Below, piece after piece: positions 11,194 to 58,665 of a stretch of 64,000 nucleotides of DNA. Location: positions 448,225 through 512,224 of the forward strand of contig MQUF01000003.1 of NCBI GenBank assembly GCA_001914235.1, in the 5' to 3' direction. Positions within the stretch are counted from its first letter, which is position 1. Each line of letters begins with the position of its first letter. Origin of the DNA: Desulfobulbaceae bacterium DB1. Lineage in GTDB: Bacteria; Desulfobacterota; Desulfobulbia; Desulfobulbales; SURF-16. The translations under genes and the position numbers were made by a program. Below the pieces are notes generated by a model, which saw nothing but the letters and a program-made list of their open reading frames with translations, was not told the DNA's origin and made no database searches.

Positions 11194-11409
11194 TTCCTCT
11201 CGTTTTTCTCAAAAAAATCAATTTTCGTTGCCCAAACACACTTCATCCAACCCGCTGAAGTGAAACAAAAGATCCCTGCGGCTCTCTTTCCCTGCAAAGA
11301 TCGCGTGATGCAAATGCAGGCGAGCTCGTCTTGCCGCACGCCCCAAGGCAACGAAATGGCCGGTTATTAACACACCCGAAATTTTGAAAACGACAAGAGA
11401 GGTTTCATC

Positions 11410-11835
11410 ATGGCAATTCCCTATATCTACAAAAGCATTTCATTGCTCGCCGCTCTCGGCATGGCACTCTCGACCGGCGGTTGCAGTCCTCTTGGCCGCA
11501 ATTTGGTGCAAGAAGATACCGCGAAACTGGAATTCCGCACGGCGAGCAACAGCATTGTTGTCGGCTCAGCGAACGTTTACGAGAAAAACGACAAACTTAT
11601 CGTGTCCGGATCAGTCAACCGCGCATCAGGCAGCCGCGGCAGAATACGAGGCCATGTCGACATCAACGTCATCGATCCGGACGGCAAACTTCTTACAAGG
11701 CAAACAACAGCCCTTCTGCTCCCCGCAAATTCCCATTCAAACGGCAGGTCGTCCCGCTTTCTCGCATACCTCGACAGCGTCCCGCCTCCCGGCTCCGTTA
11801 TCCAGGTTGCCGCACATAAGGGAAGTCATCAGTAG
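11410..11835 (+). CDS. Hypothetical lipoprotein
   Basis: Lipobox LSTGGC after a signal peptide. Length is 141 aa. Confidence 0.55.
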   Translation: MAIPYIYKSISLLAALGMALSTGGCSPLGRNLVQEDTAKLEFRTASNSIVVGSANVYEKNDKLIVSGSVNRASGSRGRIRGHVDINVIDPDGKLLTRQTTALLLPANSHSNGRSSRFLAYLDSVPPPGSVIQVAAHKGSHQ

Positions 11836-11909
11836 GCAGCCCAGCCCTTCACCACGGATGGGCGCAACTCGTTGTCTTGCACCAATCACATGAGAAAGGA
11901 GAGTCCATT

Positions 11910-13229: not shown

Positions 13230-13239
13230 GGAATATCTC

Positions 13240-14574: not shown

Positions 14575-14585
14575 GGGAGGACGGC

Positions 14586-18643: not shown

Positions 18644-21100
18644 CTAAAAACGAATGATCGCCCCGGCCCCCCAGCCGAAATCGGAATGCCATTGGCCGAT
18701 CAGGGAAAAACTTTTCGACAGCATGTACGTGAGGCCCGCCTTGCCTTCCCATTGTGCGGCATGGGTATCATATTCGGCTTCACCGATCAGGGCCAGGCGC
18801 GGGGTCAGGGCGAATTCCTTGTCAAAGGAAAAACGACCGCCGCCGTCGCTGTCCAGCCAATAGCGGGACTCAATCAGCAGCGGCAGCAGCCAGGTGACAC
18901 CCACAACTCCACGGGAATGTTCCGTATCGCTGCCCTGCCCCAGCATATCGAACCCGGCAAACACGGTGAAAAAACGATTGATATACCTGTCCCAGGACAG
19001 AAATCCTTCCCACTCATTTTTATCGACACGCTGCCAGCCCGACTCCCATTCCGCTGAAAGGGTGTTGCGGGTGCCGGCAGCCGTTAAAAAAACCTCGGCC
19101 ATGTTGCTTGTCAACGCAGCCTCGCCCCAGGAGTGCCACATATCAATGTAAAGTTGCGGACGGATGGCGGCAACCTCGTCCGGCATCACAAAATTATCGT
19201 AGTGAAGCAGGCGGGCCATGCCGCTTTCCATGTGGTAAAGGAGATGGCAGTGAAAAAACCAGTCTCCGGTTTCGTTGGCGTCAAATTCGATAACCGTGGT
19301 GGACATGGGAGCGACATTGACCGTGTGTTTCAGCGGCGCATGATCGCCCTGTCCATTGACAACCCGGAAAAAATGGCCGTGCAGATGCATGGGATGATGC
19401 ATCATGGTGCGGTTGATCATAATGAAACGGACAATCTCGCCCTGGCTCACCGGAATGACGTCGGTCTCGGAAAGCGCCTGGTTGTTCATAAACCAGACAT
19501 AGCGTTCCATATCCCCGTCCAGGGTTAGCCGGATTTCCCGCACCGGCCTGTTGCCGGCAAAGGCGGTTGCGGAGACGGCCCGCAATTTTTCATAAGGCGG
19601 CCATGGACGGCTCTGATCCATGCCGTCCATGGCAAGACTGCCGGCCGAGGAAACATCGGAAGCCATCGGCCGGAAATCAGCGCCGTATTTTTTGCCGTTC
19701 CGTTCACCCCGGTCTCTTGTCCTTTGCTGTTGCGGCGCCATGTCCCCCATGTCATGACCGGCGTGGCTGACAACAGGTTGCGCCGCTTCACCTTCCCCCC
19801 TGCTTTCCGTGGTCGGGGCGGCATGACTCTCCATACCATGCCCCGTATGCGGGGAACCCGCGCCATGATCCATGCCGGGCATAACCGGTTTCTCCATCAT
19901 CTCCATCCGGTCCATGCCATGCCCCACATGACCCATGTCACCCATGTCATCCATGCCGCCCATTGCCGTCATGCCGGGTTTGTCGAACATGCCGGCGGAG
20001 ACCGCATCATCATCCATGCCCATTGAGGCCGCCGGGTTCAAAGCGAACAGGGTGCCCAGGCTGAGATCGCCCATGGCATGATAGAGATTCGGTTTCGGCA
20101 CATCGGGCGCGGGACGGGAATCACCAGTGCCGAGCCACACCGAGGTGAAACCCGACCCATCGTGGGCGGTTGCCCGCAATTCGCAAGCGCCTTTTTGCGG
20201 AACCGTGATGAGCACGTCATAGGTCTCCGCAACGCCGATGAGCAAACGTTCCGTTTCCACCGGTTCCACATCGATACCGTCGGCCGCGATGATCCGCATG
20301 GGGCCGCCGGCGAATTCAAGGTGAAAAAAGGTGGTGGAGGAGCCATCAATGATTCGCAACCGGATTGTTTCTCCCGGTTGGGCGTCAAGATGCATTTCCG
20401 TGCTGCCGTTGGCAAGAAAACGGTCATAGGCGACATCGGCGATGTCCATGGCCGGCATGCGCCCCAGCTCGCGCTTGAAATAATCGGCAAGCATGCCGAG
20501 ACGAATGGCGCCGACTATACTTTGCGCGCTGCCCTTTTCAACGGCAAACCACTCGCTGCCGCGTTTCAGGGTGCGGATAATCTGGTGCGGGTCTTCATCG
20601 GCCCAGTCGGAAAGCAGGATCACATAATCACGGTCAGCCGGGAAACGGGGAACAGTGGGCTCGATGACAATGGCGCCGTACACGCCGCGTTGCTCCTGCA
20701 GACCGGTATGGGAGTGATACCAGTAGGTTCCGCTCTGCCGAATGGGAAACTCATAGGTAAAAGTAGTACCCGGGGCGATTGGCGGAAAGCTGACATACGG
20801 AACCCCGTCCATGCCGGGGGGCACCAGGATGCCGTGCCAATGAAGAGAGGTTTCGACAGCCATTCTGTTGCTGACGTGAATACGGGCGAGATCCCCCTCC
20901 CGGAACCGTAATACCGGACCGGGAATGGAGCCGTTGATGGTCATCGCCGTGGTCGGCGTGCCGGTGATATCGACAGCCTGAGAGGCAATTTCAAGGTGGT
21001 ACTGACTGGTTTTCGCATGCACCGTTGCCAGACCGAGCAGGACCATGATGACGGTGATCACGGGTTGCCATAAAAAGAATATGCGTTTTTCCCGGGGCAT
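18644..21100 (-). CDS. Multicopper oxidase (CopA-like) fused to a C-terminal CopB-like outer-membrane domain
   Basis: Cu-site motifs HWHG, YWYHSH, HPMHLHGH and HCHLLYHMESGM, plus a Met/His-rich linker. The last ~190 aa resemble the CopB barrel (..GVVGVTWLLPLLIESRYWLDSDGGGRFSFDKEFALTPRLALIGEAEYD..) and end in a terminal Phe. The start is set to ATG 21100, after AAAAAGGAGA. Confidence 0.85.
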   Translation of the reverse strand: MPREKRIFFLWQPVITVIMVLLGLATVHAKTSQYHLEIASQAVDITGTPTTAMTINGSIPGPVLRFREGDLARIHVSNRMAVETSLHWHGILVPPGMDGVPYVSFPPIAPGTTFTYEFPIRQSGTYWYHSHTGLQEQRGVYGAIVIEPTVPRFPADRDYVILLSDWADEDPHQIIRTLKRGSEWFAVEKGSAQSIVGAIRLGMLADYFKRELGRMPAMDIADVAYDRFLANGSTEMHLDAQPGETIRLRIIDGSSTTFFHLEFAGGPMRIIAADGIDVEPVETERLLIGVAETYDVLITVPQKGACELRATAHDGSGFTSVWLGTGDSRPAPDVPKPNLYHAMGDLSLGTLFALNPAASMGMDDDAVSAGMFDKPGMTAMGGMDDMGDMGHVGHGMDRMEMMEKPVMPGMDHGAGSPHTGHGMESHAAPTTESRGEGEAAQPVVSHAGHDMGDMAPQQQRTRDRGERNGKKYGADFRPMASDVSSAGSLAMDGMDQSRPWPPYEKLRAVSATAFAGNRPVREIRLTLDGDMERYVWFMNNQALSETDVIPVSQGEIVRFIMINRTMMHHPMHLHGHFFRVVNGQGDHAPLKHTVNVAPMSTTVIEFDANETGDWFFHCHLLYHMESGMARLLHYDNFVMPDEVAAIRPQLYIDMWHSWGEAALTSNMAEVFLTAAGTRNTLSAEWESGWQRVDKNEWEGFLSWDRYINRFFTVFAGFDMLGQGSDTEHSRGVVGVTWLLPLLIESRYWLDSDGGGRFSFDKEFALTPRLALIGEAEYDTHAAQWEGKAGLTYMLSKSFSLIGQWHSDFGWGAGAIIRF

Positions 21101-21174
21101 TGGCGTCTCCTTTTTTGCCGGTCGCGCTTCCACAGACATGATGAATCAATCCTACATATTCACCGGGCAAAAAG

Positions 21175-23106: not shown

Positions 23107-23835
23107 ATGCGACTGGCCATTATTTCCGACATCCACGGCAATTACCGGGCCCTGCAGGCTGTCTTGCGGGATATCGACGCCATCGGCGTGGATGATATCA
23201 TCTCGCTGGGTGACAATATCGGCTATGGACCGGAACCGGAAGAGGTGGTGCAGACCCTGCTGCAACGAAAAATCGATTCGGTCATGGGCAATCACGAGCT
23301 CGGCCTGGCCAGCGCCAGCGCCTTGCAACGACTCAATGCGAGTCCACGCCTTTCCCTTGAACTCACCCGGCAACTGATGACAAAAGAGTCCCTGCAATTC
23401 TCCATATCCCTGCCGCCCTTTCTGGTCCGCCACAAGACCCGTTTTGTCCACGGCTGCCCACCCGCATCAATTACCGCCTATCTCTGGAACCCCACCGAAA
23501 CGCGACTGTCGCGGCTCTTTGCCGGTTATGCCGAAACCATCTGTTTTTTCGGCCATACCCACAATCTCTCCCGCTTTCAAAGGCGAGCGGAACGCTGCTT
23601 CACGGAAAACGCCGGCCTGGGGGAATTTGCATTGCTGCCGGATGCCCGATACATCATCAACCCCGGCAGCGTCGGGCAACCCAGGGATACAATCAACAAC
23701 AAGGCCAAATACGGCATCTGGCATATGGATACGATGCTTTTTGAACAGCGGGCCGTGAGCTATGATGTGCAAGCCACGGTTGCCCTGCTCGCGGAACGCG
23801 AATTCCCCTCATCGAACGCGATCAGGCTTCTTTGA
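23107..23835 (+). CDS. Metallophosphoesterase with PPP-like motifs (possible Ser/Thr phosphatase partner)
   Basis: Motifs ISDIHGN (DxHG), SLGDNIGYG (GDxx..G), MGNHE (GNHE) and GHTH. Confidence 0.85.
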   Translation: MRLAIISDIHGNYRALQAVLRDIDAIGVDDIISLGDNIGYGPEPEEVVQTLLQRKIDSVMGNHELGLASASALQRLNASPRLSLELTRQLMTKESLQFSISLPPFLVRHKTRFVHGCPPASITAYLWNPTETRLSRLFAGYAETICFFGHTHNLSRFQRRAERCFTENAGLGEFALLPDARYIINPGSVGQPRDTINNKAKYGIWHMDTMLFEQRAVSYDVQATVALLAEREFPSSNAIRLL

Positions 23836-23848
23836 GCGAAATCAGGTC

Positions 23849-25172
23849 ATGGAAAAAATAGGTCGCTATCACATTCTACGCAAGCTCGGCAGAGGAGGAA
23901 TGGGCTCGGTCTACAAGGCCGTCGTACCGGTCATCAACAAGGTGGTGGCGATAAAAGTCCTGGACCCCTTTGAAACGCTCGTCGCCCTCCTTGGAAATGA
24001 AAGGTTGCGGGAAATTTTCACATTCGAGGCGGTGACGATGGCCGGCCTCCACCATCCCGGGGTGGTCGATGTCTGGGACTTTGGAGAAGACGAACAGGGA
24101 CGGCCTTATTTTGTCATGGAGTTCTTCTGCAATAACCTGGGCAATATGACGGGCGAGAGCTTCCAGATGGAAAAGGCCTGCCGCCGCATCAACCCGGACA
24201 AGGTCCTCAGCTATGGCAGGCAGATTCTCGATGGTCTTGCCTGCCTGCACCACAACCAGATTATCCACCGGGATATCAAGCCGTTCAACATCCTGATAAC
24301 AGATGAAGACCGGGCCAAGATCTGCGATTTCGGCATGGCGCTTTCAAAAGGATTTTCTTTTTCCGAACCAAAAAAAAATGCAGATCGGGTCACCTTACTA
24401 TGCAGCCCCCGAACAGGCGAGTCATCCGGACAGGGTTGACGGCCGGGCCGACCTCTATTCAGCCGGGGTGCTGCTTTACCGCATGCTGACCGGAGAACTG
24501 CCGAGCATGCGCAGTTTTTCCCTGAGCCGGGTGAATCCCCTCTATGATAATGCCTGGGACGATTTTTTTTCAAGGTCGCTGAGCCTCCATCCCGACAATC
24601 GTTTCCAGACGGCTGACGACATGGCGGAGGGTTTGAATCGACTCCATGTCCACTGGCAGACCGTCACCAGGCAGCAGACGTTGCAAAACCCAAAAAAGAA
24701 AAACGAGAAAAGGATCATCCTGCGCAAGGAGCCGAAAAACGTCTGCGGGAAAAAGGCCCGGATCCTTTTCGGCCTGAACGAAATGCACCGCCCTGACAAC
24801 GCCGTTCCAAACCACTTCATCAATGCGGAAAAAGACATCATCCTTGACGAGGCAACCGGGCTTTTCTGGCAGCATGACTGCAACCAATACAGCCTGTCCT
24901 GGCAGGCAGCCGTGGACTATGTCGCAACCCTCAACAGTCAAGCGTTTGCCGGCAAAAACAACTGGCGGCTGCCCACGGTAAACGAACTCGTCTCATTATT
25001 GCGCGAAGAGGCCTGGCAATCCGCAACAACCCCCTTTGCCGATCGGGGAAAATGGTTGTGGAGCTGCGATCGCCATGGCGAAAGAGATGCCTGGTATGTC
25101 AACATGGATATGGGTTTTGCCGACTGGCAGGATATCACCTGCCGCAACTTTGCCCGGGCGGTCTCCGGCTAA
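23849..25172 (+). pseudogene. Ser/Thr protein kinase with C-terminal DUF1566-like domain, reading frame broken in an A9 run
   Basis: The first frame carries GRGGMGSVYKA, VAIKVL, HRDIKPFN and DFG. The next frame carries SPYYAAPEQ and the rest of the kinase. The DUF1566-like end is NNWRLPTVNELVSL..WSCD. The switch occurs at A9 (24370-24378); A8 would give one continuous frame. Confidence 0.8.
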
Positions 25173-27099: not shown

Positions 27100-30000
27100 A
27101 TGAAACTAATTACCTTTTCCATTAATGCAGTCGAATTGACGGTAGCCGGCGGCACCACCATTCTGGACGCCGCGGAAAAAATCGGCATACCCATACCAAC
27201 CCTTTGCCGTGTAGCGGACAAATCCGAGGCAGACTGCGGCATCTGCGCAGTGGAATGCGAAGGCAGCGAAGAATTGCTTCGGGCATGCAGCACGCAGGCT
27301 GCAGCCGGCATGGTCATCCGCACGGACACCGAAACGGTGAAGAAATACCGGCAAAAGCAACTGACTCGCCTCGCGGCAACCCATTTCGGCGACTGCAAGG
27401 CTCCCTGCAATCTGACCTGCCCCGGCCAGATTAATGTCCAGGGTTATATCGCCCATGTCGCAAAAGGACAGTATGAAGAGGCGGTTCGCCTGATCATGGA
27501 ACGCAACCCCTTTCCCTTTTCAGTGGGGCGTGTCTGCCCCCGTTTCTGCGAAACCCGCTGCCGGCGCATTCTGGTTGATGAGCCTGTTTCCATCAACCAC
27601 CTGAAACGATTTGTCGCGGACTGGTGCATGGCGAACAAGATTGATCTCAAAATCCGCCGCCGATCGCTGACCGGAAAAAAAGTGGCGGTGGTGGGCGGCG
27701 GCCCGGCGGGGCTCACCGCCGCCTACTTTCTGGCCGAAAAAGGTCACGCGGTTACGGTGTTTGAGGCCAATGACAAACTTGGCGGCATGCTGCGCTATGG
27801 CCTGCCGGAATACAAGATTCCCAAAAAGATCCTGGATTACGAAATCAGCAGCATTCTGCGCCTTGGAATCTCAGTACAGCTCAACCAGCACTGGGGGAGA
27901 GACTTTACCCTGGCAAGCCTGAATGAGCAAGGTTTTGACTCGGTGCTGCTGACCATCGGCACCACCGTTGACCAGCCTCTTGAAATTCCGGGTGCAACCC
28001 TGAACAATGTGCTGCCGGCTACCCGGTTTCTCCACATGGTCAATGAAGAGGTGGGAAGGGATTACGGCCGAAGAGCCGCTGTGATAGGCGGCAACAATGT
28101 GGCCATGGAAACGGCCCGCTGCCTGCTCCGCAACAATGTGGACCAGGTGACCATCATCTATCCCCGGGCGCAGCTCGAGATGCCGGCCAACCAGCGAAAC
28201 ATCCGTGAGGCGGAAAGGGAAGGAGTTCAGTTTCTACTCATGGCCTCCCCCATTCAGATCATGGAAAAAGACGGCGGTCTCGAGCTGGAACTGATCCGCA
28301 TGAAACTGGGAGAGGCTGACGCCAGAGGAATCCGCCTGCCGGTGGCCATCCCCGGATCCGCCAATATTCTCAAGGTGGATACGGTAATCTATGCATTGGG
28401 ACAGTCGGCCTGCGGGGAAGAGGGCATTCCCGGTGACCGGCAGGCGGACGACCTTGAATTCACCCCCGGCAACATTATCAAGGCCAACCCGAGAACCTCG
28501 CTTACCAATCTTGCTGATGTTTATGCCGCAGGCGATGCGACAAGCGGCCCCCGATCCGTCATCCAAGCCGTTGTTTCAGCCCGGCGAGCCGCGGAAAACA
28601 TCCACGCCGCACTTATGGCGGTGAGTAAAGAACCGGCCGACAGCCGTTTTAATTTTTCCCGCGGCCGATCATTTGATGACGTTGACATGCGCAACTTCGA
28701 CGGGGTCAAGGTGCGATTGCGGGAAAAAATGCCGTCACGGCCGCCGGAGCGATGCATCCAGGATTTCGACGAGGTCAAACTCGGTTTCACTGAACAGATG
28801 GCCAGGCGGGAGGCGGCACGATGCCTTTCCTGCGGCTGCACCGCTTTTGACCGGTGCGATTTCAAGCGACTGTGCATCGAAAATTTCGTTGATCCGAACA
28901 AAACCGGCATGGGGACGTCCCCGCGCTACAAAAAGGATCTGTCCCATCCTGTCATTGCGGTTGATCTCGACAAGTGCGTCTTCTGCCGGCGCTGCGTCAA
29001 TTCCTGCCAATACGGGGCCCTGGAGATGTCAGCCGCCTCCCTTGACAACGAAGGCCGGCCCCAGGAAATACGTCTTCGTTTCAATGAAAAATGCACCCAC
29101 TGCGGCCAATGCGTCGACAGCTGCTCAACCGGCGCCCTGAACAAAAAAGACATGTCCGTGCCGATCACGGGCGAAGCGACACGGGAGATACGCACCACCT
29201 GCCCTTACTGCGGGGCCGGCTGCCAGATGCTGCTCAAGGTGAAGGGCAATACCATCATGGAGGTGGAGTCGGAGCCTGATCTGGCACCCAATTACGGCGC
29301 GCTCTGCGTTAAGGGACGCTTTGCCTTTAACTTCATTCATCATCCGGACCGTCTGACTCGCCCGTTGATCAGGCGGAACGGCCAGCTGGTGGAGACCTCC
29401 TGGGAAGAGGCCTTAAATCATGCGGCAAAACGTTTTTTTGATATCAAGGCGATGTATGGCGCGGACGCCATTGCCGGATTTTCCTGCGCCCGGGCAACCA
29501 ACGAAGAAAATTATCTGATGCAGAAATTCATGCGTACAGCGATCGGCACCAACAATATCGATCATTGTGCACGACTTTGACACGCGCCAACCGTGGCCAG
29601 TCTGGCCATCACTTTCGGCAGCGGCGCAATGACAAACTCCATTGCCGATGCAGTCAACGGCAAAACCGATCTCTTTCTGATGATCGGCAGCAATCCCGAC
29701 ACCAGCCATCCCACCATCGGCCTGCGCATCCACCAGGCCGTTGATCGAGGAGCCAAGCTGATCGTCATCGATCCGCGCAAAACAAAACTTGCCGAGCGGG
29801 CCGATCATTGGCTGCGCATTCTTCCCGGTACCGATGTGGCAATGCTGAACGGACTGATGCACATCATCATCGAGGAGGACCTCTGGGACAAGGAGTTTGT
29901 CGCGGAGCGTACCGAAGATTTCGATGAGCTGCGCACCCTGGTGAAAAAATATCCGCCGGAGATGGTGGCCCGCATCACCGGCATCACCGCTGAGCAACTG

Positions 30001-31236
30001 CGCCGTGTGGCCCGCATGTATGCCGCTCCGGGCCGGCACGCCATATACCACGGGATGGGAATCACCCATTACACCACCGGCACCGATCGAGTTAAATCCA
30101 TCGCCAACCTGGCGATGCTCTGCGGCAAGGTCGGGATGGAGGGCGGCGGCTGCAACCCCCTGCGCGGACAGAACAACGTCCAGGGCGCCTGCGACATGGG
30201 CGCCCTGTTCAACACCCTGCCGGGCTACGGCGGGCTGGATGACGACGACCTGTTCGATTGCTACGAAAAACTCTGGAATGTCAAACTGCCGCGGCGTCCC
30301 GGCAAACCCGCCACCGAGGTGTGGGACAACATCATGAAGGGAGACATCCGCGCCCTCTACATCTTCGGGGAGGATCCGGCCATTGCCGACGCCAATATCG
30401 GTCATGTGCGTCAGGCACTGGAGGAAGTCGATTTCCTGGTGGTGCAGGATATTTTTCTCACTGAAACCGCCAAGGCAGCGGACGTGGTGTTTCCTGCCGC
30501 CTGTTTCGCCGAGAAAGACGGCACCTTTGCCTCCACCGAACGGAGGGTGCAGCGGGTGCGCAAAGCGGTGGATCCACCCGGTGATGCGAAACCGGACTGG
30601 CGGATCTTCTGCGAACTGTCCCGTAAGATGGGTTATCCCCTCGAGTACGAAAGCGTTGAGCATATATTTCAGGAAATCGCTTCCATTCTCCCCCAATACC
30701 GGGGTATAAGCTATAAACGGCTTGATACCGTCGGTCTGCAGTGGCCGGTGCCTGATGCGGACCATCCAGGCACCCCGGTGTTGCATATCGGCAATTTCAC
30801 CCGGGGCAAGGGCTTATTTGTTGCCGAGGACTATATCCCGCCGCAGGAACCGGTAAACGATGAGTACCCGTTGCTCTTTACCACCGGCCGCCATTATGCC
30901 CGGTACAACTTCAGCAGCATGACCGGCAAAACCCTGGAGATCGATGATATCGCGCCCGAGGCACTGGCTGAGATCAACCCGAAAGACGCCGAACAGATGG
31001 GAATCAACGAAGGCGACATATTGCGCCTGACATCGCGGCGCGGCGCAGTCACCATCAAGGCGACCATTACCGATCGAACCCAGCAGGGCACCGTTTTCAC
31101 CACCTACAACTACCATGACACGCCGGTCAACCTTCTTACCCTGGATGCACTGGATCGTTTGTCCCGTACCCCGGAATACAAGCTCTGCGCAATCAGAGTA
31201 GAGGTGGTTGAGAAAAAAACATCTTGTGAGAGATAA
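27100..31236 (+). CDS. fdhA: Selenocysteine-containing formate dehydrogenase alpha subunit fused to 2Fe-2S ferredoxin, GltD-like NAD(P)H-FAD oxidoreductase and 4Fe-4S domains (TGA 29578-29580 read as Sec)
   Basis: Track ORFs 27100-29580 and 29593-31236 are in the same frame and are joined by ..[32 protein letters not shown], the FdhF/FdhA Sec motif. N-terminal 2Fe-2S region (CRVADKSEADCGICAVEC). GltD-like dinucleotide folds (VAVVGGGPAGLTAAYFLA, AAVIGGGNVAME). Two CxxCxxCxxxC ferredoxin motifs, then the MopB cluster CPYCGAGC. Confidence 0.9.
29578..29620 (+). promoter_or_regulatory. SECIS element for the FdhA selenocysteine codon
   Basis: Hairpin TGGCC-AGTCT-GGCCA begins 16 nt after the U of UGA. 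G and U sit at positions 23 and 24 from the UGA, the same positions as the SelB-contacted G23/U24 in the E. coli fdhF apical loop. Confidence 0.75.
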
Positions 31237-37265: not shown

Positions 37266-38864
37266 ATGAAAAAGAAACTGAGCAGCTATATTGCCGGCGC
37301 GTTTATCATCAATGTTTTCGCCATCCTCAGTGTAGGCGGCATCTGTACCTTGATGGTCAAAGACATGGTGACGAATATCGCCCGTCTGGAAAAGGAAAGC
37401 GGGAATGTCTCCACAATTTACCGACTGAACAACAAAATCCAGCATGCCGTCTTCATGGTTCACAATTCCATCGTTGATTATGATGAAACAGCGGAAAATG
37501 AAATCATGGCCACCATGGCCAAGGCGGAAAAAGACCTGCTCGACTATATGGGAAGTGAAAAGAGCGGGCACAATCTTCATACGCAGGAGGAATTCATTCT
37601 CCTGGAGAAACTTCACGACAATATCAGCGGCATCAAAACCCTTCTGCCCGAAATTTACCGCAACCTCACCCTTGCCGAGCCCCAGGATGAGAACGGGTTC
37701 AAACTGCTGGAAAAATATGCCTTTCACGCCCGGAACCTGACCCAGTCCATCAACGATGTTCATTTCAAAGTCGTGTCAGGCCTGGTCAAGGAATCTTACA
37801 ACAAGATGTTTTTCATCCTGCTGCTCTACCTGACCTGTTCGGTGGTGGGGATCCTCGCCTCCTGCGTCGGCTATGTGGTGTTAAGCCGTCATACGATCAA
37901 GCCGATCATCAATCTTGCCACCGCGACCCGCAGAATTTCCGGCGGCGATCTCGGTATCCGGGTTGCAACCGATTCCGAAACCGAAATCGGCACTCTGTAT
38001 CAATCATTCAATGCAATGACGGAAAAGCTGCAGGAACATCAGCGAAAACGGGAAGATTTCAACCGGATGCTGGAAAAACTGGTAAAGGAAAGGACCCGGG
38101 AACTGCTCGAATCAAATGAGTCTTTGTCCCGTACCCAGTCGGAACTGGTCAGGATGGAAAAAATCGCCACCCTGGGCCAGATCGCCACCTCGGTCAACCA
38201 CGAAATCAAAACACCGCTGAATGTCCTGTACATGAATCTGCAACTGCTCATTCGCAAGATAAACCAGTGCCCCATGGAAGGGGACTCGCTGAAACAGGGC
38301 ATGCTCGGTCTGACCGAGATCATCAATAATGAAATCGGCAGAATCAATGAAATAATTGAAGAATTCGTCAAATATGCCCGTTTCCCCGCCCCGAAAATCA
38401 AAGAAAGCGATATCAACAAAATACTTACCGACATCGCGGAGATGGTCACCCAGAATGCACGGGAGGCGGACATCAGCATCGATCTTCAGCTTGATGACAA
38501 TTTACAGACCTGCCCGGTTGATGCTAAGATGATGATTCAGGCTCTGCTCAATCTCTGCATGAATGCCATCCAGGCCATGCCCTACGGCGGATCCTTGAAA
38601 ATTGAAAGCAAAAAACTGGAATCATGCACGAAAATATCGATCATCGATACCGGACAGGGCATTGAAGCGGCCGACCTTGACCGCATCTTCGATCCCTTTT
38701 TCACCAAAAAAGACGGAGGCCTGGGTTTTGGGCTTGCAATTGTCCAGCGAATCATCGAAGATCACCGTGGTTCCATTTCCTGCCGGAGCGAGGTGGAAAA
38801 AGGGACCGAATTCACCATCATTCTTCCGACAACGACAAAGGCAATCTGTCAGGATATCATATAA
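37266..38864 (+). CDS. Sensor histidine kinase (periplasmic sensor, HAMP, HisKA, HATPase_c)
   Basis: Two TM segments flank a ~150-aa loop, followed by a HAMP domain. H-box SVNHEIKTPLN, and N/G boxes (LNLCMNAIQA, DTGQGI, GGLGFGL). Confidence 0.9.
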   Translation: MKKKLSSYIAGAFIINVFAILSVGGICTLMVKDMVTNIARLEKESGNVSTIYRLNNKIQHAVFMVHNSIVDYDETAENEIMATMAKAEKDLLDYMGSEKSGHNLHTQEEFILLEKLHDNISGIKTLLPEIYRNLTLAEPQDENGFKLLEKYAFHARNLTQSINDVHFKVVSGLVKESYNKMFFILLLYLTCSVVGILASCVGYVVLSRHTIKPIINLATATRRISGGDLGIRVATDSETEIGTLYQSFNAMTEKLQEHQRKREDFNRMLEKLVKERTRELLESNESLSRTQSELVRMEKIATLGQIATSVNHEIKTPLNVLYMNLQLLIRKINQCPMEGDSLKQGMLGLTEIINNEIGRINEIIEEFVKYARFPAPKIKESDINKILTDIAEMVTQNAREADISIDLQLDDNLQTCPVDAKMMIQALLNLCMNAIQAMPYGGSLKIESKKLESCTKISIIDTGQGIEAADLDRIFDPFFTKKDGGLGFGLAIVQRIIEDHRGSISCRSEVEKGTEFTIILPTTTKAICQDII

Positions 38865-38873
38865 GGTGCACCC

Positions 38874-40214
38874 ATGCCGCAGACCACCATACTGATTGTC
38901 GATGATGACAAAATGACACGGCAGACGCTTTCCCTGGCTCTTGAGGATCATTATCAGACCATGACGGCCAAGGACGGGAAAACCGCCCTGGAAACGCTCA
39001 GGGAGCAGGAAATCGACATCGTCCTTTCCGATCTTTTCATGCCGGGGATGAACGGCATTGAGCTGCTTGAGCAAATCAATCAGTTGCCGGAAAAGCCGCC
39101 GGTCATTTTCATAACCGGCCAGGGCACGGTCGAAACCGCCGTGCAGGCCATGAAACTGGGCGCCTATGACTATGTCACCAAGCCGATCAACATCGACCGC
39201 CTGTGTCTTATCATCGAAAAAACCCTGGAAAATAAACGACTCAAGGAAGAAAACATCCTGCTGAAGGAAAAGATAAAGGAAAACTATCCCGACCTTTCCC
39301 TTATCGGCGATTCCCCGGTCATGCAAAAGGTCAAGGCACTGGCCCATCAGGTGGCCTCCACCACCGCAACCGTGCTCATTGAAGGGGAAAGCGGCACCGG
39401 CAAGGAACTGATCACCAACATCATCCACTACAACAGCCCGGTGGCCCACGGTCCGTTCATCAAAGTCAACTGCGCGGCCTTTGCCGAAGGCGTGCTGGAA
39501 TCGGAACTTTTCGGTCATGAAAAAGGTGCCTTTACCGGCGCCGTGGCCGCGAAGAAAGGCCGTTTCGAGCTGGCCGACAACGGCACCCTTTTTCTCGATG
39601 AAATCGGAGAAATGCCCCAGTCGATCCAGGTCAAGCTGCTGCGCTTTCTCCAGGAGCAGACCTTTGAGCGGGTCGGCGGCACAAAAACCCTGAAGGTGCA
39701 AGTGCGGATTATCTCCGCCACCAACAGAAACCTGACGGAAATGATCAAGGAAGGGACCTTCCGGGAAGACCTTTATTACCGCCTCCGGGTGGTCAAGATC
39801 GAGATGCCCCCTTTACGGGACAGACGGGAAGACATTCCTCCCCTGGTGGACAATTTTCTGAAGAAATTCTCCCACCGGCACGGCAAACCGATTCAGCGGG
39901 TGTCGAACGAGGTTATGAACCTGATCAAACAGTATAACTGGCCGGGCAACATTCGGGAATTGATGAACTGTATAGAGAGCTCGGTGGTCATGGCGCGGGG
40001 CGACACGCTGACCATCGATTCCATACCGGAATACCTGACCTATACCGAAAATGGTTCGGAACCGGAAAGCAAGGAAGGGGCGCTGCATGAAATGGAGCGT
40101 CAGCTTATCACCGATGTGCTCAACAAAACGGCAGGCGACAAGGTGCGGGCGGCGAAAATTCTCGGCATCGGCCTGCGCACCCTGTACCGCAAACTGGACA
40201 GATGGGAGATGTGA
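38874..40214 (+). CDS. Sigma54-dependent response regulator (NtrC family enhancer-binding protein)
   Basis: Receiver domain (ILIVDDD..DIVLSDLFMPGMNG). AAA+ domain with GESGTGKE and the GAFTGA loop. C-terminal Fis-type HTH (AAKILGIGLRTLYRKL). Confidence 0.95.
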   Translation: MPQTTILIVDDDKMTRQTLSLALEDHYQTMTAKDGKTALETLREQEIDIVLSDLFMPGMNGIELLEQINQLPEKPPVIFITGQGTVETAVQAMKLGAYDYVTKPINIDRLCLIIEKTLENKRLKEENILLKEKIKENYPDLSLIGDSPVMQKVKALAHQVASTTATVLIEGESGTGKELITNIIHYNSPVAHGPFIKVNCAAFAEGVLESELFGHEKGAFTGAVAAKKGRFELADNGTLFLDEIGEMPQSIQVKLLRFLQEQTFERVGGTKTLKVQVRIISATNRNLTEMIKEGTFREDLYYRLRVVKIEMPPLRDRREDIPPLVDNFLKKFSHRHGKPIQRVSNEVMNLIKQYNWPGNIRELMNCIESSVVMARGDTLTIDSIPEYLTYTENGSEPESKEGALHEMERQLITDVLNKTAGDKVRAAKILGIGLRTLYRKLDRWEM

Positions 40215-42388: not shown

Positions 42389-42404
42389 TGGCACGATAAT
42401 GGCA
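42389..42404 (+). promoter_or_regulatory. Candidate sigma54 (-24/-12) promoter
   Basis: TGGCACGATAATGGCA has a perfect -24 TGGCAC and correct GG-N10-GC spacing. The -12 element is TGGCA rather than TTGCA. It lies about 72 nt upstream of ATG 42477. Confidence 0.55.
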
Positions 42405-42476: not shown

Positions 42477-42710
42477 ATGAAAGCAACGAACCCCGAAGCC
42501 AAGGCCCAGGTAAAAAAACGCTCCACCGTTTCAAGTTCGGAAAACATCCAGGCCAAGGTTGAAGTTTCCAAGGGCGTTGTCATTGCGCTGGGCACAGCTC
42601 CGGCGCTGATCGGCATCTGGGCGGCCGCCTGTTTTGTCGGAGGTCTCGTTGCAAGCGGCGGTCCCATCGGCATGGTGAAAAGCTGGTTTTCGGCAATAAG
42701 CGGCATGTAA
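42477..42710 (+). CDS. Small (77-aa) C-terminally membrane-anchored protein, paralogue 1
   Basis: GGAGGAAGCAA precedes the ATG. A polar N-terminus is followed by ALIGIWAAACFVGGLVASG..WFSAISGM. Confidence 0.6.
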   Translation: MKATNPEAKAQVKKRSTVSSSENIQAKVEVSKGVVIALGTAPALIGIWAAACFVGGLVASGGPIGMVKSWFSAISGM

Positions 42711-42771: not shown

Positions 42772-42996
42772 ATGAAAGAAGCAACATTGACAAAAAAACA
42801 AAACAAGGCACGGACAGGTGAACATATTCAGGCACAGACGGGTCTTGACACGTTTGCCACAGGCACCATCTCCGTCATGGGCGGCATTTCCGCCATCATC
42901 GGCATCTGGGCTGCAGCCTGCTTCATCGGCGGTCTTCTCAGCAGCGGCCCGGTTGAATTGGCTTACGGATGGTTCAGGGCGATAACCGGCCTGTAA
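42772..42996 (+). CDS. Small (74-aa) C-terminally membrane-anchored protein, paralogue 2
   Basis: GGAGGTGCCCC precedes the ATG. AIIGIWAAACFIGGLLSSG..WFRAITGL shares an almost identical core with the preceding gene. Confidence 0.6.
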   Translation: MKEATLTKKQNKARTGEHIQAQTGLDTFATGTISVMGGISAIIGIWAAACFIGGLLSSGPVELAYGWFRAITGL

Positions 42997-43163
42997 AACC
43001 CGCCCCGAGAGTGAGCATGCTGCACAGACAAACAATCCCTCCCCCTGAGTCCCGCCAACGAATGGACAAGAAAAGCACGCGGCAGAGCCGCGTGCTTTTC
43101 CCTGTTTGCGACGCAAATCACCTTCGTCTCAGCCGCCACTGTTGAGCCGAGGAAACCAAAGAA

Positions 43164-44627
43164 ATGAGCAAATCGTCTCCCAGCTTCATGAAAGCGGCGG
43201 TCAATCGAATTTCCCGCAGCAAACTTTCCGTTATCGGCGCGGTTCTCCTCATCTTCGTCAGCCCGATTCTCAGCCTCTCCGTTTTTCTCGACATTCAGGG
43301 CATCGTCAATAATCCCTATTTCGGCTTTCTTATTTATCTTGTTCTCGGACCGCTGTTTCTTTTAGGCATTATCCTGCTTTTTATCGGCATCATTACCTCC
43401 AGGGGCAAGGAGGACATCGGCCTCTTCACCTTTGAATACATCGAAGAACAACTCGCCCGTCCCGGCCGTTACAGCCGTATCCGGCGGCATCTTTACTTCA
43501 GCGTCACCCTCACCCTGGTGACCCTGTTCCTGGTCGCCCTTGTTTCCTATACCGGCTTTCACTATACGGAATCAAATGCATTCTGCGGCCAGTTCTGCCA
43601 TACGGTCATGGAGCCGGCTTTCACCTCGCACTCCAATTCCCCGCACTCTCGGATTTCCTGCGTCAATTGCCATATGGGCAAAGGTTCCCGGTGGATGACC
43701 AAAACCAAGTTCTCCGGTGTCAAGCAGCTTTTTGCCGTCATGTTCGACACCTATCACCGCCCCATCCGTCAGCCCATCGACACCCTGCGCCCGACACGGG
43801 CTACCTGTGAGGAATGTCACCGTCCAGACATGTTTCACGGCGACAAACTCTATATCAAGGACCGTTTTTTACCTGACAAAGACAACACCCACGTCCAGAC
43901 GGCGCTGCTTATGCGGATAGGATCGGGCGGCTACCTCGGCAGAAAAGCCCACGGTATCCACTGGCATGTTTCCGAGGACAACCAGGTTTTCTACAAATAC
44001 AGCGATCTGCATCAGGAGGAAATCGCCCAGGTCTGGCTGCAGAACGGAAACAAGAAAACCATTTACAGCAAAACCGCCTTGCAGCAGCAGGTACCGGCAA
44101 CCCTGTTGAGTGGCACTGTCCGGAAAATGGACTGCATGGACTGCCATAACCGGCCCACCCACGTTTTTCTCAGCGCGGAAGAGGCATTGGACGAAAAAAT
44201 TCTCATGGGGGTTATTCCCCGCACCATCCCCTTTATCAAGAAAAACGGGGTTGAAATCGTCAGCCGGCACTATGATTCGGTGGAACAGGCACTGGAAGCC
44301 ATTTCACAAGATCTGTTCCAATGGTACGAAAAGAATTATCCGGATTTCACCTCAAGCAAAAAACATCTGCTTGACAAGGCGGTCGCTGGAATCCAGCAGG
44401 CCTACCGGGAAAACGTCTTTCCCGATATGGAGGTGGGCTGGAATACCTATGACAATTTTATCGGCCACAAGGACGGAAACGGCTGTTTCCGTTGTCACAA
44501 GGGAGAGCACGTCAGTGAAGAGGGCAAGGTGATCAGCCATGATTGCGACAGTTGCCATGTGATTCTGGCGGAAAACGAACCCCAGCCCGATGTTCTGCGC
44601 ATTCTCAAGGAAGAAGCCGCCAAGTAA
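43164..44627 (+). CDS. Membrane-anchored multihaem c-type cytochrome (NapC/NirT-like N-terminal module; 5 CXXCH plus 1 CX3CH)
   Basis: N-terminal TM segments. Haem sites are CGQFCH (CX3CH), CVNCH, CEECH, CMDCH, CFRCH and CDSCH. Confidence 0.85.
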   Translation: MSKSSPSFMKAAVNRISRSKLSVIGAVLLIFVSPILSLSVFLDIQGIVNNPYFGFLIYLVLGPLFLLGIILLFIGIITSRGKEDIGLFTFEYIEEQLARPGRYSRIRRHLYFSVTLTLVTLFLVALVSYTGFHYTESNAFCGQFCHTVMEPAFTSHSNSPHSRISCVNCHMGKGSRWMTKTKFSGVKQLFAVMFDTYHRPIRQPIDTLRPTRATCEECHRPDMFHGDKLYIKDRFLPDKDNTHVQTALLMRIGSGGYLGRKAHGIHWHVSEDNQVFYKYSDLHQEEIAQVWLQNGNKKTIYSKTALQQQVPATLLSGTVRKMDCMDCHNRPTHVFLSAEEALDEKILMGVIPRTIPFIKKNGVEIVSRHYDSVEQALEAISQDLFQWYEKNYPDFTSSKKHLLDKAVAGIQQAYRENVFPDMEVGWNTYDNFIGHKDGNGCFRCHKGEHVSEEGKVISHDCDSCHVILAENEPQPDVLRILKEEAAK

Positions 44628-44681
44628 ACGCCGGCAGGCTTGATTCAAAACAATAACGACATACCGACGGAGTAGTTTGCA

Positions 44682-46124
44682 ATGAAAGATGATGAGCCAA
44701 ATAACGACCAGGAAAACGACTATCCAAAAAATTATGACCACGAGGGAGCCTTTGACCGCCTGCTGAAGGGGCTATGGCGCTCACCCCTGGGCGTTTTCGG
44801 TGTGGCGCTGACCACTATCAGCATCACCCTGATGATGATCGGCACCATCATCGACATGACCGGCCTGATCGACAACCCATACGCATCCCTGGTGACATAC
44901 ACCATTCTGCCGGTGGGCATGCTGATAGGCCTTGCCCTGATCCCCCTTGCCGCTTTCCTGCGCAGACGGAAATGGCATAAATACGGTGTCGACCGCGACC
45001 ATCTGCAGCTCAACCTGAGTAACCCCAAACACCGTCTGGCCCTGATCGGCTTCATCGTTCTTTCCGTGACCAACGTGGCTATTCTCGCGGTCATCGGTTA
45101 TGAAGGCTATCATTTCACCGATTCGTCCTATTTCTGCGGTGTCGTCTGCCACCAGGTGATGGAACCGGAATATGTGGCCTATAAGCGTTCCCCCCACTCC
45201 AGGGTGGCCTGCGTCGAATGTCACATCGGACCGGGAGCGGAATGGTACGCCCGCGCCAAGCTTTCCGGATTGCGCCAGGTGGCGGCCGTTATGCGCAATA
45301 CCTACAGCCGGCCCATTCCCGCCCCGGTCCATGAGCTGCGTCCGGCCAGGGATACCTGCGAACAGTGCCACTGGCCGGATAAATTTCACGGCAAAAGGAT
45401 AAAAAGATTTGTTTCCTTCAGCAACAATGACCAAACAAATCCGGAAATCACCGAAGTTGCCCTGCATATCGGCGGCCACAACCCCGAAACGAACGTCTTT
45501 GAAGGAATCCACTGGCATGTCAGCCATGAGGTGGAAGTAAGCTATCTGGCGGCGGACGAAAAACGCACGCAAATCGCCAAGGTCAGGGTGAAACGACCGG
45601 ACGGGACCGCGGATGAATTTATCAAGGGCGACATTGAAGTCCCGGCAACCGAGGAAGAAAACTGGCGGGTAATGGACTGCATCGACTGCCATAACCGCCC
45701 CACCCACATTTACAATATGCCGGAAGAAAGGGTTGATTTCGGTCTGCTCAGTAAAAAAATCAACCCTGAAATCCCCGGCATCCGCGAGGACAGCCTCAAG
45801 GTAATCACCAAGGAGTATGCATCCCGCGAGGAGGCAAAGGCTTCCATGACCAACGACCTGATTTCCCTGCAAAAACAACGGGATGCCGGGATGGCGGAAA
45901 CAAACAAAAATGATCTGCTCAAGGCCGGCGATTTCCTGCTGGAAGCATACCTCGGCAACGTCTGGCCGGAAATGAAGGTTGCCTGGGGTACCTATCGCGA
46001 TCATCTCGGCCACCAATGGGCTGATGACGGATACGGCTGCTGGCGCTGCCACGACGAAGAGCACGTCAACAGCGCAGGGGAAACCATTTCCCAGGATTGC
46101 TCCATCTGCCATGATGAACCCTGA
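44682..46124 (+). CDS. Membrane-anchored multihaem c-type cytochrome, paralogue of the preceding gene
   Basis: Same architecture and motif order: CGVVCH (CX3CH), CVECH, CEQCH, CIDCH, CWRCH, CSICH. Shared blocks include SPHSR..C.ECH.G, MDC.DCHNRPTH and GC.RCH. Confidence 0.85.
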   Translation: MKDDEPNNDQENDYPKNYDHEGAFDRLLKGLWRSPLGVFGVALTTISITLMMIGTIIDMTGLIDNPYASLVTYTILPVGMLIGLALIPLAAFLRRRKWHKYGVDRDHLQLNLSNPKHRLALIGFIVLSVTNVAILAVIGYEGYHFTDSSYFCGVVCHQVMEPEYVAYKRSPHSRVACVECHIGPGAEWYARAKLSGLRQVAAVMRNTYSRPIPAPVHELRPARDTCEQCHWPDKFHGKRIKRFVSFSNNDQTNPEITEVALHIGGHNPETNVFEGIHWHVSHEVEVSYLAADEKRTQIAKVRVKRPDGTADEFIKGDIEVPATEEENWRVMDCIDCHNRPTHIYNMPEERVDFGLLSKKINPEIPGIREDSLKVITKEYASREEAKASMTNDLISLQKQRDAGMAETNKNDLLKAGDFLLEAYLGNVWPEMKVAWGTYRDHLGHQWADDGYGCWRCHDEEHVNSAGETISQDCSICHDEP

Positions 46125-56784: not shown

Positions 56785-58665
56785 TCAGGGCAAGGTCACC
56801 TGCAGATCCGCATCCTCGCTGAGGGTGTAATCCACCTTGTTGTAGGCGGCGTCGATGGTCTGCACCCGGATATTGTAGGTTCTGCCGGCAAGGGTATAGA
56901 CATGACTCATGACGGCAGCGGCCGGGTTGCTGTACACAGTGCTGCGGCGATCACCCCAGTAGACATAGGCCCTTTGCACATTCTCCGGGAAAGCCGCATT
57001 CAGGCTTACCGTCCTGCCGTTGACCGCGGTGGTGAAATCGATGACCGGGGCCTGCGATTCCACCAAGACCGCGGCGGCATTGACCACGGCGGTCGCGCTT
57101 TTGCCGCTCACCGATTCACGCATGGTCAGTGTCGCGCTATAGGTCCCCTCGCTGTCATACTGGTAAACGATACTCTCATTGCCGTTGCCGCCCGTGATGC
57201 TGCCGGTTCCCCCGAAGTCCCAGGTGTAGCTGCAGGTGCGCGCTAGCGCCACGCCATTGACGGTTTCGTAGCAGGCGGAACGGCTGGCGTCAAAACTCAC
57301 CGTCCGGTCCGTGTCAAGGGAAGAAAGGGCTGAGACATGCGGCACAACGCTTATCTCAACATAGTTCTCCCATCTGACCGGGTCTGAATATCCCCAGTAT
57401 GCATGGCAGGAGTTGGACGAACAGCTGCCGCCGCCCTCGGCCGGGGTATAGGTGAATGACAGAGCCTGATCACCGTCTCCGTTTCGCCCCGGAAAAGTCG
57501 GGCCAGGCGCGACATTGACCGTGCCGTTGTTATGGCTGGCGCTGATGTTTGATCCATCCGTGGTCGTCTCATAATGGCAGGTCTGGCAGCCATAGCCGAT
57601 CTGGGTGTGGCGCCCGTGCCGGTCATTTTCCCCTTGTGCCGGTGGATAGTCATGGCAGGAATTGCAGCTGGGAAGAAAACCGTTCTTGTGCTCATGACAG
57701 GCCAGACAATCCTGACCCGCATTATGCTCAATACCGGAACCATCTGCCCGCCAGTAATTGGTCGTGGTGTGACAGACCTGACAAATGCCGTCCGGGGTGG
57801 AATCCGTCCCTCCTGCCCCGAGCCCGTCGTTTTTAGCCGCATCCTGACGGCCGAGAAAACGCACGGGAGAGCTGGTCCAGCTGGATGGAGCCGTCGTATC
57901 GGTATAGATTCGGGACAAAATTTCCTGGCCGTAAAAAACCCTGAGCACACCAGGAGGGTACGGCTCGAAAACATCATTTCTCAATTGTCCCTTGATCACA
58001 ATCGTGCTGGTGCCGTCAGGGTTGGTGGCGGCATCGAGAATTTCGCCGTACCAGACACGGGGGCGATTGCCTGGGTCACGAATAATCTCCAGCATCAGCC
58101 CGCGTTCCGGTCCTGTTTTCTTATTCCAGCTGCCGAGATCGTTCCACTGTACCGCATTGACCGTCATCTGCACCCCGGAGAAGGTTGTCGTATCCATGGC
58201 CGGATCCCAAACCCCGGCGCTGGTATATGTCCCCTCGGCAATTGCCGGGGTAAGGAGCGGGTTGACATGACCAATCTGCGGCGGATGAAATTCGGCATTC
58301 TGGCTGGGGCCGTGATGGCAGGAACCGCAGCCCCGGATCAAGGTCCCCCTGGGGTCGCTGCCGAGTGCGGCGGCGGAATGCGATTCCATGGCCGGTGCGG
58401 AATGCAGGCTGTAGGGAGGCCCGTTTTCATTGACATGACAGCTTGCGCAAAGAAAACGATTGGAATAAAAGGACCAGCTTCCCGTGACCCCGTCATCCGT
58501 ATGGCAGTTCCCGCAGTCGCGGAAACTGAAACCATCCGAGTTCATATAACTGGTTGCGTTATGAGGCGACTGCTCATAAAAACTGTAGGTCAACTGGGCC
58601 GCGGCCGCCCCAGGCATGGCCAGAACCACCAGCAGGGGCAGACTCTTCATCATTTTTTTCTTCAT
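56785..58665 (-). CDS. Secreted multihaem c-type cytochrome (7 CXXCH plus 1 CX4CH) with two C-terminal PKD/Ig-like domains
   Basis: Signal peptide present. Haem sites are CGNCH, CASCH, CGSCH, CQVCH, CLACH, CNSCH, CQTCH and GGGSCSSNSCH. The PKD-like segment is CSYTWDFGGTGSITGGNGNESIVYQYDSEGTYSATL. Confidence 0.85.
   Translation of the reverse strand: MKKKMMKSLPLLVVLAMPGAAAAQLTYSFYEQSPHNATSYMNSDGFSFRDCGNCHTDDGVTGSWSFYSNRFLCASCHVNENGPPYSLHSAPAMESHSAAALGSDPRGTLIRGCGSCHHGPSQNAEFHPPQIGHVNPLLTPAIAEGTYTSAGVWDPAMDTTTFSGVQMTVNAVQWNDLGSWNKKTGPERGLMLEIIRDPGNRPRVWYGEILDAATNPDGTSTIVIKGQLRNDVFEPYPPGVLRVFYGQEILSRIYTDTTAPSSWTSSPVRFLGRQDAAKNDGLGAGGTDSTPDGICQVCHTTTNYWRADGSGIEHNAGQDCLACHEHKNGFLPSCNSCHDYPPAQGENDRHGRHTQIGYGCQTCHYETTTDGSNISASHNNGTVNVAPGPTFPGRNGDGDQALSFTYTPAEGGGSCSSNSCHAYWGYSDPVRWENYVEISVVPHVSALSSLDTDRTVSFDASRSACYETVNGVALARTCSYTWDFGGTGSITGGNGNESIVYQYDSEGTYSATLTMRESVSGKSATAVVNAAAVLVESQAPVIDFTTAVNGRTVSLNAAFPENVQRAYVYWGDRRSTVYSNPAAAVMSHVYTLAGRTYNIRVQTIDAAYNKVDYTLSEDADLQVTLP

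Follow-up and report, generated by a model that had tools for sequence, protein, structure and literature searches.

Two adjacent genes, here called A and B, lie on a 64,000-nucleotide stretch of the genome of Desulfobulbaceae bacterium DB1 (contig MQUF01000003.1, positions 448,225 to 512,224 of the forward strand; the whole stretch is referred to below as the window). We analyse the proteins that they encode and conclude, with a high degree of confidence, that both are six-haem-type members of the ImcH family, i.e. inner-membrane multihaem c-type cytochromes. Within the NapC/NirT/NrfH quinol dehydrogenases, this family forms an extended branch with three helices.

An earlier reading of the same DNA (the original prediction) had drawn attention to the first haem motif of the two proteins, which is CX3CH rather than CXXCH. 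We will show that this observation is correct yet ordinary, as it was explained earlier for the ImcH family (Levar 2014; Zhong & Shi 2018), which the original prediction did not recognise. The first ImcH motif was already noted to be CXXXCH in the original ImcH paper (Levar 2014), and all ImcH homologues were described as having an atypical CX3CH beside the transmembrane (TM) domain together with 5-9 CX2CH motifs (Zhong & Shi 2018, PMC6295460). In A and B, CX3CH is the documented ImcH signature and no sign of new haem attachment or maturation, and the alignments indicate that the haem of the quinol site has this extra residue as a fixed trait throughout the family and that it is no local oddity.

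Architecture, conservation and family assignment

The open reading frames (ORFs) of A and B are separated by 54 bases, and their limits agree exactly with those given earlier (the coordinates of all features are collected in Table 1). The two proteins share 35% identity along their full length (E 1e-103), and hydropathy shows three N-terminal hydrophobic peaks in both. In an AlphaFold2 model of A, the CX3CH motif starts about six residues past the end of the third TM helix (TM3, residues 103-135). The positively charged N-terminus and the basic loop between TM2 and TM3 point to an N-in topology, which would place the haem domain in the periplasm. A protein identical to A (P0001) is present on a Logan contig.

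A motif scan by script gives the order C141-GQF-C145-H146, CVNCH 166, CEECH 215, CMDCH 324, CFRCH 441 and CDSCH 461 in A, and C152-GVV-C156-H157, CVECH 177, CEQCH 226, CIDCH 333, CWRCH 453 and CSICH 473 in B. Each protein contains 12 cysteines, none of which lies outside the haem motifs. Identity, helices and motif scan thus bear out the earlier description of two paralogous, membrane-anchored multihaem cytochromes in which CX3CH (CGQFCH in A, CGVVCH in B) is followed by five CXXCH motifs.

The motif pattern exceeds by far what chance would give, and the CX3CH site is conserved throughout the family. It is the first motif in all of the closest homologues (120/120) and in 82/82 ImcH-like genes from the fetched genome loci. 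Among 223 diverse relatives, composed of representatives of 50%-identity clusters and of the genome loci, 219 carry CX3CH, and the remaining four have CXXCH at the same alignment column. Both cysteines and the histidine are invariant columns in an alignment of 29 sequences with 30-62% identity to B, and the family consensus can be written as F-C-G-x-x-C-H-x-x-M-x-P, with Phe in 223/223, Gly in 206/219, Met in 212/223 and Pro in 211/223 sequences. What the original prediction had seen in two copies, namely the conservation of the extra residue, is hence found family-wide, and since the first cysteine is conserved, the reading of the motif as a haem site stands.

In the relatives P0152, P0172 and P0226, CX3CH is replaced by an ordinary CXXCH (CSSCH, CGSCH and CASCH), and the downstream x-x-M-x-P is retained (alignment columns ~170-176). 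The rare CXXCH members of the family are natural variants that can be used to probe the role of the extra residue.

The relation to the NapC/NirT proteins is seen from the Pfam model PF03264, which matches residues 110-198 of A (32.1 bits, E 1.2e-7) and 117-208 of B (31.8 bits) at a cutoff of 24.1 and covers TM3 and the first haem motifs in both proteins. HMMER aligns 'FCGQFCHTVMEP' of A to 'FCT-SCH-IMNP' of NrfH (2j7a_C; E 6.5e-7, A residues 117-220), such that CX3CH coincides with haem motif 1 of NrfH (C43-x-x-C46-H47), its two cysteines being one residue further apart. These two matches confirm that the variant site sits at the first NapC/NirT haem position, as had been proposed. A sequence search of the PDB returned only NrfH (2j7a/2vr0) and a weak match to the c3-like 2a3m, and no solved ImcH-family structure. 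NrfH is also the best NCBIfam match (TIGR03153), yet the scores are 44.7 bits for A and 46.5 bits for B, as compared with a cutoff of 134.2.

NrfH of Desulfovibrio vulgaris shares with A and B the membrane-surface quinol-dehydrogenase fold, and its TM helix and haem motifs 1-3 can be aligned with theirs. Met49, the proximal ligand of haem 1 in NrfH, aligns with Met149 of A and Met160 of B, motif 1 being CXXCH-x-M in NrfH and CX3CH-x-x-M in A and B. However, NrfH is a protein of only ~160 amino acids (aa) with a single TM helix and four CXXCH motifs, and it is bound to NrfA in a fixed complex. CymA of Shewanella, NapC and TorC are, like A and B, members of PF03264, and these three are menaquinol oxidases that feed periplasmic partners. 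They are, on the other hand, tetra- or pentahaem proteins with one TM helix and a CXXCH as first motif, and their similarity to A and B is limited to the N-terminal part. Two CymA homologues from Rhodoferax have been reported to have CX3CH (Zhong & Shi 2018, PMC6295460).

For the comparison with ImcH itself, an orthologue from a metagenome-assembled genome (MAG) of Geobacter sp. (L040) was used as a stand-in for the G. sulfurreducens protein (GSU3259). It consists of 504 aa and begins with MTLRKT, which is the N-terminal sequence determined for G. sulfurreducens ImcH (10.1101/2023.05.03.539133). Its motifs are located at 132 (CX3CH), 157, 206, 312, 429, 449 and 487, and it carries E127, H137, K173, Q179 and Y188 at the published ImcH numbering. 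Over the full length, A is 36.5% identical to this protein (328 bits) and B 38.6% (355 bits). Two further homologues are entries of the published Table S3 (PMC6295460): the 455-aa protein OFW24447.1 of Acidobacteria bacterium RIFCSPLOWO2_12_FULL_66_21 (L030), to which A and B are 36.5% and 37.6% identical, and the protein of Zixibacteria RBG-1 (L017), with 39.0% and 40.8%. All these values are inside the range of 31.5-49% reported for the identity between ImcH clades (Zhong & Shi 2018, PMC6295460). The positions of the CXXCH motifs in Table S3 are one lower than those given here, as checked on L030.

A and B share with Geobacter ImcH the three TM helices at the N-terminus, the NapC/NirT-like region that covers TM3 and the first haem motifs, the CX3CH directly after TM3 and a spacing of 25 and 49 residues between the first three motifs. 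The presumed residues of the quinol pocket at haem 1, too, are found at equal offsets from the motif histidine (-10, +36, +42 and +51), corresponding to E127, K173, Q179 and Y188 in ImcH, to D147, K193, Q199 and Y208 in B, and to the residues listed for A in Table 1. Family-wide, these positions are occupied by E/D in 209/223, K in 210/223, Q in 202/223 and Y/F in 201/223 sequences.

The six-motif homologues of Table S3, which include Desulfocapsa sulfexigens UWK_02209, a Desulfobacterales MAG, Desulfuromonadales GWC2_61_20, Geoalkalibacter, Anaeromyxobacter and others (PMC6295460), also have three TM helices, CX3CH and five CXXCH motifs at near-identical spacing, and they were reported as single genes. 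Exceptions in the TM count among ImcH homologues are two proteins with a single TM motif (Zhong & Shi 2018, PMC6295460). A CX3CH followed by five CXXCH is the commonest layout of the family (67/150 diverse representatives) and represents the lower end of the published 5-9 range. The family is large, with 2941 clusters at 50% identity (E<=1e-3) and 591 confirmed relatives from a scan of species-representative genomes, and the nearest named database entries carry generic names, such as 'NapC/NirT family cytochrome c' and 'cytochrome c3 family protein'.

A and B thus display the three TM helices, the NapC/NirT region, the initial CX3CH, the five CXXCH motifs, the full-length similarity and the pocket residues that characterise ImcH. 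We file them as members of this family because of this layout, the full-length similarity, the low NrfH score and the absence of an adjacent reductase.

Several points weigh against this assignment. There are six haem motifs, compared to seven in Geobacter ImcH, as the C-terminal seventh site is absent, and the identity to Geobacter ImcH is just 36-39%. The nearest named relatives place the window in the Desulfobulbales, an order not chiefly known for metal respiration, so that electrons could go to a different acceptor or even flow in the other direction. No gene for a periplasmic or outer-membrane cytochrome adjoins A and B, the nearest multihaem gene being ~11 kb away. The haem content of the two proteins is predicted from their sequences. 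The AlphaFold2 model of A has a mean predicted local distance difference test (pLDDT) of 72 and a predicted template-modelling score (pTM) of 0.62, with low confidence around the haem sites (residues 136-180). A Foldseek search with this model against the PDB gave no match at E<=0.001; the top matches, Brr2 and pilins, are meaningless. Models of multihaem proteins without their haems are poorly ordered near the haem sites, and this outcome is hence given no weight. A and B are uncharacterised members of a known family, and their differences from the type member leave the kind of system unchanged.

Proposed function and alternative explanations

Recombinant G. sulfurreducens ImcH produced in Shewanella oneidensis contains 6.6 Fe per protein and has a mass matching seven haems, as reported in a preprint by Pimenta and co-workers (10.1101/2023.05.03.539133). 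According to the same study, the protein has CX3CH and six CXXCH motifs, forms a homodimer in detergent, is partly reduced by menadiol and titrates between -350 and -150 mV. In the model presented there, haem 1 is situated beside TM3 at the menaquinol site equivalent to that of NrfH, with a His137/Gln179 ligation predicted from the AlphaFold structure, and a signal at g = 5.99 in electron paramagnetic resonance (EPR) indicates that a haem is partly high-spin. Menaquinol oxidation and the need for the protein in the reduction of high-potential extracellular acceptors are known for G. sulfurreducens ImcH only (Levar 2014; 10.1101/2023.05.03.539133).

By homology with Geobacter ImcH and NrfH, the most likely function of A and B would be the oxidation of menaquinol at haem 1, with the electrons passing along the haem chain to periplasmic acceptors. 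While the sequences show the architecture, the homology and the conservation, we infer how many haems are bound, that the substrate is a quinol, which way the electrons flow and what accepts them in the cell, and we picture the mechanism in the following way. Each protein would be anchored by its three helices such that its haem domain is in the periplasm. Haem 1 would be covalently held at CX3CH just after TM3, at the membrane surface and next to a menaquinol site formed by the conserved Glu/Asp, Lys, Gln and Tyr. Menaquinol would be oxidised at this haem, with release of the protons to the periplasm, and the electrons would travel through haems 2-6 to a solvent-exposed terminal haem, from which soluble periplasmic cytochromes or other acceptors would be reduced.

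The partner and the direction of the electron transfer could, in principle, be different. One option is that A and B are NrfH/NapC/TorC-like anchors, dedicated to one periplasmic reductase (for nitrite, nitrate or a sulphur compound), and not ImcH-like general quinol oxidases tied to extracellular electron transfer. This would fit with NrfH being both the best NCBIfam match and the sole solved relative, with the NrfD / 4Fe-4S / c3-type module that is found beside a tandem pair in locus L083 (see below), and with the host lineage, which includes sulphur disproportionators such as Dissulfurirhabdus and Desulfocapsa. We consider it unlikely, however, as the NrfH scores are far below the cutoff, three TM helices and six haems are present where NrfH has one and four, and the full-length similarity is to ImcH proteins. 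Furthermore, the genes flanking A and B encode FtsH, the two small ORFs discussed below, an SprT-like/DUF2786 protein and a cupin, and neither nrfA nor another reductase gene was found adjoining the pair.

Another option is that the pair works in reverse, as a quinone reductase that delivers electrons from periplasmic or extracellular donors to the menaquinone pool. Desulfobulbales include sulphide-oxidising and electron-accepting lifestyles, which counts in favour of this scenario. It is also in line with the proposal that the related CymA and CbcL/MtoC families are bidirectional, but in the same work ImcH homologues were found only in Fe(III) reducers and are regarded as quinol oxidases (Zhong & Shi 2018, PMC6295460). 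Considering in addition the potential range of the Geobacter ImcH haems and their partial reduction by menadiol, and that there is no pointer to an electron-uptake pathway in the window, we judge the reverse reaction to be quite improbable for A and B.

Two other alternatives concern the motif itself. The first is that CX3CH attaches no haem and instead forms a disulphide or a metal site, for example, in which case each protein would have five haems and the likeness to NapC haem 1 would be vestigial. The rarity of CX3CH among c-type cytochromes speaks for this, as do the low model confidence in the region of the motif and the nature of the evidence on haem content, both mentioned above. However, the cysteine pair, the histidine, the preceding Phe and the later Met and Pro are invariant or nearly so in the 223 relatives, a plain CXXCH is found at the same column in four of them, and in the alignment the motif matches the haem-1 site of NrfH, the structure of which has been solved. 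Also the iron content and the mass of Geobacter ImcH fit seven haems, and it would therefore be very surprising if the site did not bind haem.

The second is that haem attachment to CX3CH depends on a lyase of its own, the gene for which would lie in another part of the genome. Specialised lyases serve unusual motifs, such as CX15CH in MccA and CXXCK in NrfA, which provides a general precedent, and our view is limited to 64 kb of the genome. Geobacter ImcH, on the other hand, was matured with about seven haems in Shewanella oneidensis, that is, in a heterologous host, which argues that CX3CH is loaded by the general maturation system, and by analogy the motif in A and B would require no special haem lyase. 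The E. coli Ccm system reportedly attaches haem to CX3CH and CX4CH variants; our search of the literature on the tolerance of Ccm to CX3CH found nothing usable. In the window, there is no Ccm, Ccs, NrfE-like, haem-lyase or cytochrome-biogenesis gene, and no Ccm, Ccs, NrfE-like or lyase gene flanks the cytochrome genes in L001, L002, L083 and L084. A dedicated lyase is thus highly improbable.

These results also bear on the suggestion in the original prediction that the non-standard spacing calls for dedicated maturation, for which a lyase gene should be sought, or alters the properties of the haem. The former part is not upheld, in view of the 6.6 Fe in the ImcH made in Shewanella and the lack of a lyase gene in the window. 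The latter is plausible, considering the unusual His/Gln ligation predicted for haem 1 and the partial high-spin EPR signal of Geobacter ImcH.

The tandem pair and its putative control region

In a neighbour-joining tree, A belongs to a clade of Desulfobulbales A-type proteins and six-haem proteins of Desulfuromonadales, while the clade of B consists of proteins from Desulfobulbaceae, Desulfurivibrionaceae and Desulfocapsaceae. A third group is made up of the seven-haem proteins of Geobacter, Syntrophus and Acidobacteria. The possibility that the pair is a recent duplication, or that one copy is decaying, was considered and rejected, as A and B have an identity of just 35%, fall into different deep clades and both keep every invariant residue of the family. 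From the tree and the gene order, A and B appear to be ancient paralogues of two deep ImcH subclades that have been kept in tandem in several Desulfobulbales.

The same order, A followed by B, is found on the identical Logan contig, in Thiovibrio sp. JS02 (L001), in a Thermodesulfobacteriota MAG (L002) and in the MAGs L003 and L007. In the latter two, orthologues of B with 77-80% identity are located directly downstream of an A-type gene. Synteny, as judged from the annotated flanks in L001, in L002 and on the Logan contig, is partly conserved: ftsH adjoins the pair in all three, and L002 and the Logan contig also have the sigma-54-dependent response regulator. Other Desulfobulbales loci (L004-L015) have only a B-type gene within 5 kb, and Dissulfurirhabdus thermomarina has one A-type gene. 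Unlike these tandem paralogues, Geobacter imcH is monocistronic and single-copy, and the conserved pair departs to a modest degree from the norm.

In L083, the tandem consists of two A-clade genes. It is followed on the opposite strand (9339..11843, -) by genes for an NrfD-like membrane protein, a 4Fe-4S protein and a small c3-type cytochrome, a set that is a second quinone-interacting module beside the pair.

Upstream of gene A there are two small ORFs, each with a GGAGG ribosome-binding site and with a conserved hydrophobic C-terminal segment of the form IGIWAAACF(V/I)GGL...WF.A..G(M/L). Neither of them has a match in Pfam. A local iterative search located members of this small-protein family, often duplicated, close to the ImcH-A/B genes of 10 further loci from Desulfobulbales and Desulfuromonadales, and none near the imcH genes of Geobacter or Acidobacteria.

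The small ORFs are preceded by a palindrome and, ~55 bp past it, by a sigma-54-type -24/-12 element, a putative promoter judging from its sequence. A loose sigma-54 pattern has 60 matches in the whole window, compared with 81 expected from shuffled sequence, and the only reason for giving weight to the site ahead of the small ORFs is its conservation at three other loci. Genes for a histidine kinase and a sigma-54-dependent response regulator are located upstream of this control region. Between the second small ORF and gene A there is a strong hairpin, which may be a terminator or an attenuator, and a hairpin with a different sequence is present at the same place in L003 and L007. Because of this hairpin and the T-rich run before gene A, it is uncertain whether the small ORFs and the cytochromes are co-transcribed.

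Table 1. Features of the pair and of its upstream region (positions within the window; empty cells, no strand given).
Feature	Position	Strand	Description
HAMP histidine kinase	37266..38864		upstream of the control region
Sigma-54-dependent response regulator	38874..40214		upstream of the control region
Palindrome TTGTCAAAATGACA-N8-TGCCATTTTGACAA	42300..42335	+	upstream of small ORF 1; conserved in L002, L003 and L007
Sigma-54-type -24/-12 element TGGCACGATAATGGCA (TTGGCACGATAATGGCA)	42389..42404	+	conserved in L002, L003 and L007
Small ORF 1	42477..42710	+	77 aa, with a single hydrophobic segment at the C-terminus; also annotated as a gene on the identical Logan contig; possibly associated
Small ORF 2	42772..42996	+	74 aa, conserved IGIWAAACFIGGL segment; paralogue of small ORF 1; possibly associated
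Hairpin AAAAGCACGCGG-CAGAG-CCGCGTGCTTTT with T-rich tail	43072..43106	+	between small ORF 2 and gene A
imcH-like gene A	43164..44627	+	487 aa; three TM helices, CX3CH, then five CXXCH (ORF list, motif scan, hydropathy)
Membrane domain of A (aa 1-135)	43164..43568	+	TM1 ~20-44, TM2 ~51-78, TM3 ~103-135 (hydropathy and AlphaFold2 helices)
Haem-1/quinol-pocket residues K182, Q188 and Y197 of A	43707..43754	+	E136 upstream at 43569..43571
CX3CH haem-1 motif of A (C141 G Q F C145 H146)	43584..43601	+	followed by M149 and P151 (invariant alignment columns)
imcH-like gene B	44682..46124	+	480 aa; same architecture as A
CX3CH haem-1 motif of B (C152 G V V C156 H157)	45135..45152	+	followed by M160 and P162 (invariant alignment columns)

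A and B probably serve different potential windows or different partners, or pair with each other. A more far-reaching idea is that, in a subset of Desulfobulbales, the tandem paralogues form a heteromeric quinol dehydrogenase with the ~75-aa single-helix proteins as hitherto unrecognised subunits, switched on by the neighbouring sigma-54 two-component system, and that the Met three residues after the CX3CH histidine, rather than His/Gln, ligates haem 1. A heteromer comes to mind because Geobacter ImcH is a homodimer in detergent, but we regard this combined proposal as doubtful. In the ImcH papers that we consulted, there is no description of a conserved A+B tandem or of linked small membrane proteins. 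The modestly new element of the present results is thus the tandem of old paralogues in several Desulfobulbales, beside small membrane proteins and a sigma-54-type control region.

Other genes of the window and implications

The only further multihaem ORF of the window is the one already mentioned at ~11 kb from the pair (56785..58665, -). Its product, 626 aa long, is a multihaem cytochrome that combines a PKD domain with seven CXXCH motifs and one CX4CH, and it is a candidate for a periplasmic or surface electron carrier.

A number of other observations were made along the window. At 27100..31236 (+), an in-frame TGA (29578..29580) in 'DHCARL*HAPTV' links two ORFs into one long molybdopterin oxidoreductase, the product of which has an N-terminal 2Fe-2S / GltD-like / 4Fe-4S part. 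From its sequence, it looks like a selenocysteine-containing enzyme of the formate-dehydrogenase type. A gene for an 831-aa multicopper oxidase (18644..21139, -) adjoins an operon for an outer-membrane factor, an HlyD-type membrane-fusion protein and an AcrB-type RND efflux protein (11877..17696, +). Finally, a protein-kinase domain at 23762..25172 (+) extends over two overlapping ORFs (23762..24439 and 24303..25172), the second of which ends in an Lcl C-terminal domain; the split could be due to a frameshift or a sequencing error.

The tandem, together with the small proteins and the sigma-54-type region, represents a modest lead for studies of extracellular electron transfer outside Geobacter. 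For the annotation of this genome, the recognition of A and B as ImcH proteins suggests that the Desulfobulbales host is able to pass the electrons of menaquinol on to acceptors in the periplasm or outside the cell.

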